DNA from: Escherichia coli O127:H6 str. E2348/69
GTDB taxonomy: Bacteria; Pseudomonadota; Gammaproteobacteria; Enterobacterales; Enterobacteriaceae
Reading direction: 5' to 3' (one strand)
Assembly (NCBI RefSeq): GCF_000026545.1
Contig: NC_011601.1
Length of the DNA stretch: 64,000 nucleotides
The notes beneath the pieces are model-generated. The model saw only the letters and a program-made list of their open reading frames with translations, was not told the origin of the DNA and made no database searches. Below are positions 47,959 through 48,558 of this stretch, piece after piece (positions within the stretch are counted from its first letter, which is position 1; each line of letters starts with the position of its first letter). The position numbers were made by a program, and so were the translations under genes.

Positions 47959-48558
47959 TTATCGATTTTTTGCTTGTTTTTTGCTCCATGCCAAAATCTC
48001 TGCGGCATCAAACATTACTCGCCTCTCACCCATCTTAACTGGTTTTGGAAAATCGGGTCTCATCTTCCATCGCTGTAATGTGCTTTTGCTAACAGCAAGA
48101 AAATCGGCTACCTTTTGCACACTCACATATCCTTGGCTTGGAAAATCAGAGCTGTTGACATCATTCTCCCGTTCTATCCTTGCCTCTTCATGAAAACCAG
48201 CCTTCTTTGAAGGTATTTTAAGCGGTCTCTCCCGCGCTTTATCTTTTACAGAGTAAGACTCGATCCTGAGCTTTTTGTGTATCTTAAGAGGAGGTTTTTT
48301 GGCTGGTGGCTCAGGCGTCGGTTCTGGTGGTAAATAGTAATAGTAAGCCCTCACTAAATCTTCTGGTGTCAGTACACCGTAACTCATTGTTTCACGATCC
48401 GGGCGTAGTTCCAGTACCCCAAATCTAAACAACTTGTCCATTTCTGCGCTTGTTATTTCGAAGTGTTCTGACTGCTGCCCCCGAAGCTGGTAAGTTAACG
48501 CTTCTCTGGCTTCTTCAATATCATATTCGGGATGAGGAAAATGTGGTTTGCGAATCAT
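47959..48558 (-). CDS. AlpA-type HTH protein with ~130-aa N-terminal extension (199 aa)
   Basis: C-terminal VSVQKVADFLAVSKSTLQRWKMRPDFPKPVKMGERRVMFDAAEILAW is AlpA/Xis-like; N-terminal region Pro/Lys-rich, unassigned. Confidence 0.5.
   Translation of the reverse strand: MIRKPHFPHPEYDIEEAREALTYQLRGQQSEHFEITSAEMDKLFRFGVLELRPDRETMSYGVLTPEDLVRAYYYYLPPEPTPEPPAKKPPLKIHKKLRIESYSVKDKARERPLKIPSKKAGFHEEARIERENDVNSSDFPSQGYVSVQKVADFLAVSKSTLQRWKMRPDFPKPVKMGERRVMFDAAEILAWSKKQAKNR

Follow-up and report, generated by a model that had tools for sequence, protein, structure and literature searches.

In CP4-57 the alpA gene lies directly upstream of int, and small integrase-bearing islands that swap their defence cargo are common. 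Here we describe an island of 7.5 kb, located at ~47842-55333 in a 64,000-nucleotide stretch of the chromosome of the enteropathogenic Escherichia coli O127:H6 strain E2348/69 (contig NC_011601.1; hereafter the window), which is inserted in the 3' end of der and encodes an AlpA-type protein of 199 residues. Like AlpA of CP4-57, this protein has a C-terminal match to the Phage_AlpA family (PF05930) above the threshold, and the integrative element that carries it also encodes a P4-type integrase. It differs from AlpA in its length (199 versus ~60-80 residues), in the presence of an additional conserved N-terminal domain (N-domain) and tether, and in the location of its gene at the end of the element opposite to int. 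The protein is probably the control protein of the island, and the tethered N-domain would provide a protein contact.

Two groups of described elements are among the closest known systems to it. In the PICMI satellites of Vibrio, expression of AlpA is both necessary and sufficient for excision, and the PICMI model consists of int, alpA and a primase gene, the AlpA being likened to the single-domain folds of Xis and TorI, with no extra domain reported (PMC10803314). The E2348/69 island resembles PICMI and the PICI satellites of E. coli in being small and integrase-bearing, with an AlpA-type protein as its likely excision switch (PMC10803314). In contrast to PICMI, PICI and P4 satellites, however, it contains neither a primase gene, which is mandatory in the PICMI model, nor packaging or capsid-redirecting genes, and encodes an HUH-type Rep instead. 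The Pseudomonas islands I23, I44 and I55, located at the tmRNA site, are transduced by a jumbo phage, contain up to 39 open reading frames (ORFs) and share an 18-kb core (PMC12595487). By their description, these elements are similar to the E2348/69 island in having int and alpA at opposite ends, with alpA beside the attachment site (att), an inovirus Gp2-like replication protein and defence cargo, but they are much larger than 7.5 kb, occupy tmRNA rather than der, and no extended AlpA is indicated in them (PMC12595487). By analogy, the Pseudomonas islands and PICMI support the general switch logic that we propose for the island at der.

Results

The extended alpA gene

The ORF encoding the AlpA-type protein is present on the minus strand exactly where an earlier note on this DNA had placed it (47959-48558), and RefSeq annotates the same 199 residues as a 'helix-turn-helix transcriptional regulator' (WP_000619805.1). 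It begins at the first start codon past the upstream in-frame stop codon. Four E. coli variants and Escherichia albertii retain all 199 codons, and in strains T28R, AH50 and PSS-16 the full frame has been kept despite 5-9% DNA divergence. The annotated start is supported by the conservation of the very first residues in homologues with only ~30% identity to the protein. The ORF is a genuine full-length gene of 199 codons.

The opposing view, that the product is a short AlpA translated from an internal start, with the upstream 140 codons untranslated or decaying, is very improbable. Residues 145 and 147 are indeed encoded by GTG, the former preceded at a distance of 3 nt by a poorly spaced AAGGA, and in strain OW1E2, where the gene is truncated, PGAP calls a 53-residue helix-turn-helix protein in what is left of it. 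Initiation at residue 145 would, however, remove the first strand of the C-terminal fold, and the frame contains no ATG from residue 58 to residue 166. The internal Met and canonical short AlpA entertained in the earlier note were looked for and are ruled out by this gap together with the conserved N-terminus, while the same note's second doubt, that the N-terminal region may not be conserved, is removed by its retention both in the E. coli variants and in the ~30%-identity homologues. Pairwise Nei-Gojobori comparisons between strains, in which the counts are small, are consistent with a translated N-terminus: synonymous changes are in excess within the N-domain (77 residues), where the ratio of nonsynonymous to synonymous substitution rates (dN/dS) ranges from 0.05 to 0.8. 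The C-terminal domain displays 3-7 synonymous versus 0-1 nonsynonymous differences. The linker is approximately neutral (dN/dS about 0.2-2.9, from few sites), which indicates relaxed constraint.

Architecture and predicted fold

The AlpA-type DNA-binding domain claimed in the earlier note is borne out by Pfam, in which Phage_AlpA matches residues 145-191 with E=1.7e-8 and 34.7 bits (cut-off 21). Lower scores across the same stretch were obtained with HTH_17 and the excisionase model TIGR01764, and the PHROG matches, which are restricted to the C-terminus, are described as 'excisionase and transcriptional regulator' and 'DNA binding protein'. The C-terminal 55 residues also carry the F-P-x-P signature of the AlpA family. 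A full-length AlphaFold2 (AF2) model, constructed from an alignment of six family members and 39 short AlpA proteins, displays an excisionase topology in this region. The top Foldseek matches in the PDB are RdfS (8dgl), Xis of mycobacteriophage Pukovnik (4j2n) and the AlpA-family excisionase of GIsul2 (8c3t), with TM-scores to the target of 0.63-0.86, and 8c3t is the only PDB sequence match of the 199-residue protein (E=0.024). The predicted residues 141-199 superpose on these three structures with deviations of 1.2-2.1 Å over 51-55 residues. All three, however, are single domains of 54-73 residues with no counterpart of residues 1-140.

The earlier note described the remainder of the protein as an N-terminal domain of ~130 residues that is rich in Pro and Lys. 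The extension is indeed uncharacterised, but it is not a single domain; the structure prediction reveals ~77 folded residues followed by ~63 residues of disordered linker. Similarly, the Pro/Lys-rich sequence YYYYLPPEPTPEPPAKKPPLKIHKK is present at residues 72-96, but this composition is a feature of the linker only, while the conserved part of the extension is the acidic domain ahead of it (14 Asp/Glu versus 9 Lys/Arg). In the full-length model the N-domain forms a block with predicted local distance difference test (pLDDT) values of 72-91, which runs from a strand at residue 12 through two helices (14-26 and 37-45) and two strands (51 and 62-63) to a third helix (65-75). The short AlpA sequences span only ~2 of the N-domain columns in the alignment and thus did not shape this part of the model. 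When the N-domain was modelled alone, from five sequences, the three helices were kept with a pLDDT of only 62. The linker contains 11 prolines and 15 Lys/Arg versus 11 Asp/Glu, and its length varies among homologues, while a K-x-P-S-x-x-x-G element just ahead of the winged helix (residues 114-121) is invariant. As modelled, the protein is therefore in three parts, comprising a globular N-domain, a flexible tether and an Xis-type winged helix.

Homologues of the N-domain

Homologues were sought among 5.8 billion proteins with a word index, among 1.84 billion representatives with an exhaustive HMMER search, and with a profile. Beyond Escherichia, these protein searches identified N-domain homologues only in two metagenomic proteins, P0003 (194 residues) and P0125 (195 residues), and in a fragment. 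P0003 and P0125 display ~30% identity to the E2348/69 protein by phmmer (33-38% in MAFFT alignments) and have the same layout, starting with M-x-x-K-P-(H/Y)-F-P-x-P-x-Y and ending with an AlpA domain; 24 positions of the N-domain are invariant across the ~30%-identity homologues. A search of genome contigs for the N-domain returned only E. coli, E. albertii and one mis-binned contig of a metagenome-assembled genome, and none was found in 50,697 phage records, 2.9 million viral contigs or plasmids. The domain search suggested in the earlier note showed that residues 1-140 match no known family in Pfam (E up to 10), NCBIfam, PHROGs or PADLOC, and no PDB sequence in either single-sequence or profile searches. 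Foldseek with the N-domain returned nothing convincing.

The note's statement that AlpA proteins are normally short holds for the 123 AlpA-domain proteins recovered by the exhaustive HMMER search, ~87 of which have no more than 110 residues. Most of the longer ones contain 2-6 copies of the domain, making multiple AlpA units the commonest form of the domain in long proteins. Like these tandem AlpA/HTH_17 proteins (for example P0005, P0012, P0016 and P0037), the E2348/69 protein has a second [RK]P-x-F-P-x-P peptide, located at its N-terminus and resembling the signature of the AlpA domain (in P0003 KPHFPRPIY compares with KPDFPKPFY). In the tandem proteins, however, all repeats are recognisable from sequence, whereas the 199-residue protein has only one such unit and its N-domain is acidic. 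Pfam and the local AlpA hidden Markov model (HMM) recognised no second AlpA or HTH_17 domain in the protein, and structural evidence for one is weak. Profile-profile alignment, Smith-Waterman comparison with shuffling and the local HMM all align only the 7-8-residue F-P-x-P motif of the N-domain with AlpA; hhalign gives E=0.0037 but a probability of 8.9%, and empirical p values of 0.002-0.09 were obtained by Smith-Waterman and of 0.004-0.04 with the HMM.

The island at der

Table 1. Features of the 7.5-kb island and of the extended AlpA-type gene, in window coordinates.
Feature	Coordinates	Strand	Basis or remarks
att direct repeat, distal copy TTACTTACTTTTCTTAATATG	47842..47862	.	occupied sites aligned to empty K-12 site
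Palindrome TGGGTACAC-N4-GTGTACACA	47924..47945	.	between stop codon of 199-residue protein gene and att; conserved in other strains
Gene for 199-residue extended AlpA-type protein	47959..48558	(-)	stop codon 47959-47961; ORF listing, RefSeq CDS WP_000619805.1
AlpA/Xis-type winged helix-turn-helix, residues 141-199	47962..48138	(-)	PF05930, pLDDT ~90, Foldseek
Pro/Lys-rich disordered tether, residues 78-140	48139..48327	(-)	pLDDT 44-60, no secondary structure
N-domain, residues 1-77	48328..48558	(-)	acidic, predicted β-α-α-β-β-α; AF2, alignment
Intergenic region upstream of 199-residue protein gene, 104 bp, divergent from ORF58	48559..48662	.	presumed promoter/operator
ORF58, 58 residues, very acidic, divergent from 199-residue protein gene	48663..48839	(+)	phrog_35119, E=5e-14
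Cargo: pentapeptide-repeat membrane protein and nucleotidyltransferase	49065..50847	(-)	
Conserved non-coding region downstream of rep	51370..51991	.	twin GC hairpins at 51833 and 51886
HUH-type Rep, 332 residues, filamentous-phage gpII-related	51992..52990	(-)	PF23343 REP_ORF2-G2P, 27.1 bits vs cut-off 27.8 (marginal); HLHMIV motif
Backbone protein, 129 residues	53043..53432	(-)	conserved; Shine-Dalgarno abuts stop codon of 60-residue ORF
Xis-like ORF, 60 residues, MENYLTARESAQYLGV...	53440..53622	(-)	unannotated; AlpA HMM, HTH_17, phrog_66
P4-type tyrosine integrase	53825..55087	(-)	Pfam Arm-DNA-bind_3, Phage_int_M, Phage_integrase; RefSeq CDS
Repeat cluster upstream of int	55132..55207	.	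two CACCGTGTACCCAA direct repeats 21 bp apart and palindrome TTGGGTACAC-N4-GTGTACACAA
Intrinsic terminator AAGCCCGCA-loop-TGCGGGCTT and T run	55251..55280	(-)	island-borne, just inside att, downstream of der
att direct repeat TTATTTGCTTTTCTTGATATG, forms 3' end of der	55313..55333	.	der stop codon inside repeat

The gene belongs to a mobile island, as the earlier note had supposed. The two 21-bp att copies, TTA(T/C)TT(G/A)CTTTTCTT(G/A)ATATG, are identical at 18 of 21 bases, and the G+C content of the island is 33-47%, compared with 48-53% in the der region. Read along the minus strand, the island comprises, in order, int, a short Xis-like ORF, the gene for a 129-residue protein, rep, ~500 bp of conserved non-coding DNA, a cargo slot, the gene for the 199-residue protein, which ends 93 bp short of att, and att itself. 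Rep is 96-100% identical in 18 genomes. The conserved non-coding DNA downstream of rep contains two copies, 53 bp apart, of the hairpin CGCCGCC-T(C/T)T-GGCGGC-TTTCTC, and is a likely origin, the hairpins possibly marking the origin or nick site of Rep. In other strains the cargo slot (~48675-51370) holds a DncV-like nucleotidyltransferase pair, an ATP-binding and DUF2357 pair, or two hypothetical genes. Such variable cargo between conserved ends is typical of a defence-cargo mini-island. ORF58 is found in three island types but not in the PSS-16 type.

Of 5,426 complete E. coli genomes, 18 (~0.3%) contain the island backbone, as a single copy and always at der. As int, rep and the gene for the 199-residue protein are conserved around four different E. 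coli cargos, this gene is part of the backbone and not cargo. A partial E. albertii contig carries it with ORF58 and a cargo pair, beside yfgJ and sinH. A search for Rep homologues returned a single cluster, too little for assembling a broader set of related islands. The island proteins displayed no match to a primase, a terminase, a capsid protein or Psu/Sid-like proteins. In Rfam, no match within the island reached the gathering score of a family, and two weak ones lie upstream of int and inside int. A literature search on the der/yfgJ site found no description of it.

Between strains the module containing the gene for the 199-residue protein is 91-95% identical at the DNA level, compared with 96-99% for rep, which suggests faster evolution or recombination at this end of the element. 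In E2348/69 an IS4 remnant (47568-47833) abuts the distal att, and in OW1E2 insertions of IS3 and IS30 have left the island as an integrase stub and the truncated gene. A 9.9-kb contig, DXAP01000044.1, binned as 'Candidatus Ligilactobacillus excrementavium', carries the E. coli island with 99% protein identity and is almost certainly a mis-binned Escherichia contig. In strain 873.10 the site at the 3' end of der (1552-15229 of the locus) holds a 14-kb P4/PICI-like element, showing that the site is shared with true satellite-like elements. This element encodes a P4-family primase, an Icd-like protein, AntA/B, SSB and an integrase that is 72.7% identical to that of the island; near int it has an ordinary 67-residue helix-turn-helix gene, and it does not encode the long AlpA-type protein.

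A short Xis-like gene beside int

The 60-residue ORF between int and the gene for the 129-residue protein (MENYLTARESAQYLGVCLSRFYQYKRYIPAFPTCTVQSINGRKRRVWLVADLDQFAARFL) was recovered by scanning all stop-to-stop frames of the island with the local AlpA HMM, to which it displays a weak match (E=8e-4). It aligns over its full length with Pfam HTH_17 at 19.1 bits, under the cut-off of 27, and weakly matches the excisionase family phrog_66 (E=0.005). The ORF is intact in six loci, with three synonymous versus 0-1 nonsynonymous changes. It is unannotated in all four RefSeq records inspected, and in E2348/69 it is overlaid by a 203-residue coding sequence (CDS) in another frame, the annotated form of a 231-residue ORF with a TTG start (53043-53738, minus strand). 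Other strains annotate at this position a 129-residue protein, without a family match, that starts MMKALTRNQ and has a good Shine-Dalgarno sequence; the 203-residue CDS of E2348/69 is probably over-extended. The presence of a short Xis-like gene beside int makes it more likely that the 199-residue protein is an AlpA-type switch than that it is the only excisionase of the island.

Candidate DNA targets and transcription signals

All four exact copies of GTGTACCCA in the window are located at the two ends of the island. Two are direct repeats 36-70 bp upstream of the listed GTG start of int (55096), and each of the near-identical end palindromes, the int-end member of which spans 55184-55207, contains one of the other two. 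The repeats are conserved in other strains and, judged from their sequence and position, could be candidate sites for arm binding by the integrase, for the 60-residue protein or for the 199-residue protein. The 104-bp region upstream of the gene for the 199-residue protein is conserved in all five island variants, including one that lacks ORF58; a scan of its minus strand with the sigma-70 consensus gave no strong match. At the int end, the strong island-borne terminator lies directly past the reconstituted der stop codon, where it ends transcription of der, and substitutes for the native hairpin of K-12.

The neighbouring prophage

Positions 1-36339 of the window are occupied by a podovirus-like prophage beside guaA, which encodes a T7 gp14-like core protein, a portal protein, a major capsid protein, RecT and a PerC-family regulator. 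Within its DnaT-like replication gene, at the position of lambda O, three TACCCAA-containing repeats (27736-27814, 36 bp apart) look like origin iterons. This cluster was considered as an island-related site and rejected, as it belongs to the replication gene of the prophage and is unrelated to the island. PIME elements, which occur at guaA, were likewise dismissed as relatives of the island, being a different, larger family with transfer genes.

Discussion

The view that we favour, at somewhat better than even confidence, is that the 199-residue protein is the AlpA-type control protein of the island, with the N-domain tethered to it as a protein contact. Greater confidence is precluded because we infer which DNA is bound, in which direction regulation acts and what the N-domain contacts. 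In this model the C-terminal winged helix would bind island DNA, candidate sites being the presumed promoter region of its own gene and the GTGTACCCA repeats, and binding would promote the transition from the integrated to an excised, replicating state, alongside Int and the short Xis-like protein. A contact made by the acidic N-domain on its tether may tune this activity, through self-association or by engaging Int, Xis, Rep or an inducing signal.

Several points weigh against this model. The end repeats fit integrase arm sites or sites for the 60-residue protein equally well, and a TACCCAA half-site in the leader of the gene, considered as an operator, was discarded as it is not conserved between strains. 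Unlike alpA and intA in CP4-57, the gene is separated from int by 5.3 kb in the integrated island, and in the excised circle the island-borne terminator lies between them, making read-through into int unlikely. The family, which consists of the Escherichia proteins and two metagenomic sequences, is too small for covariation or guilt-by-association analyses. In addition, one distant homologue adjoins a serine resolvase rather than a tyrosine integrase, and an IS200-type transposase is also adjacent to it.

An alternative that we consider unlikely, although the strongest of those weighed, is that the 199-residue protein is itself the recombination directionality factor, in which the winged helix bends the att arm at GTGTACCCA and the N-domain contacts Int, while the 60-residue ORF is a transcription factor or non-functional. 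The closest structural matches of the C-terminal domain are true excisionases, the island encodes a winged-helix protein together with an integrase, as excisionase systems do, and the gene lies next to att on an element with repeats at either end. In PICMI satellites, moreover, AlpA works in the excision complex and not in transcription (PMC10803314), and the 60-residue ORF is below the Pfam threshold. These arguments are countered by the position of that conserved Xis-like ORF immediately beside int, by the lack of any precedent for an acidic N-domain and a 63-residue tether among the matched directionality factors, which have 54-72 residues, and by the presence of repeats on both arms, which fits integrase arm sites. 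Doubtful to a slightly greater degree is the proposal that the N-domain is a degenerate second winged helix of the MerR/Xis type, arising from tandem duplication, which would make the protein a two-headed DNA/protein bridge that, for example, links the island ends or loops promoter DNA. The N-terminal [RK]P-x-F-P-x-P peptide points in this direction, and it is reasonable to suppose that the N-domain descends from a winged helix that was duplicated, since tandem AlpA repeats are common among the relatives of the protein. The evidence is weak, however, and its two lines imply different registers, so that even as an evolutionary origin of the N-domain such a duplication has no more than even odds.

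It is improbable that the protein senses a helper, with a phage or plasmid protein binding the N-domain and thereby switching the DNA-binding activity, as occurs in the SaPI repressor Stl. A conserved domain that does not resemble a DNA-binding module, tethered to one that does, would be suited to signal reception. The cargo of the island is exchangeable, but the island encodes no transfer functions itself and thus must rely on something else for transfer; in E2348/69 a prophage lies 11.5 kb away. The comparison with Stl extends only to the concept of a mobile-island protein that combines one domain for binding DNA with another for binding a partner, as the two proteins display no sequence or convincing structural similarity. 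The helix-turn-helix of Stl is at the N-terminus, so that its domain order is the reverse of that in the 199-residue protein. No resemblance to any other known sensor was evident, the N-domain has no homologues in the phage, plasmid and viral collections, and the island is devoid of every satellite hallmark tested, including primase, packaging and capsid genes. The derepression sensor or helper-phage-responsive activator envisaged in the earlier note thus receives no direct support. In addition, the satellite AlpA studied so far is controlled by its expression and not through a ligand-binding domain (PMC10803314). A more novel and similarly improbable role for the N-domain would be that of a new type of receiver module, in contrast to known satellite AlpA proteins, which are controlled only through expression. 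Here the N-terminal peptide would copy the AlpA signature, and the acidic domain behind it would act as an intramolecular mimic or as a switch that binds a partner. One chain could then sense a phage, plasmid or island protein entering the cell and, in response, drive the defence-carrying mini-island to excise and replicate.

Returning to the AlpA-type control protein that we favour, the long AlpA gives a familiar kind of protein a new architecture, one confined to a very narrow lineage, and its function is deduced only from its context. Its wider significance is limited by the rarity of the architecture, found in ~0.3% of complete E. coli genomes, and by the contextual nature of the assigned role. 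The analysis corrects the local annotation, through the addition of a missed Xis-like gene and the shortening of an over-extended CDS. The island is compact, with approximately six backbone parts, and resides in a well-studied pathogenic strain. An AlpA-type switch with a built-in extra domain, if this is what the protein proves to be, would offer a simple system in which to ask what signal triggers such an island, and the interest of the protein would grow if the N-domain were found to be the receiver of that signal.

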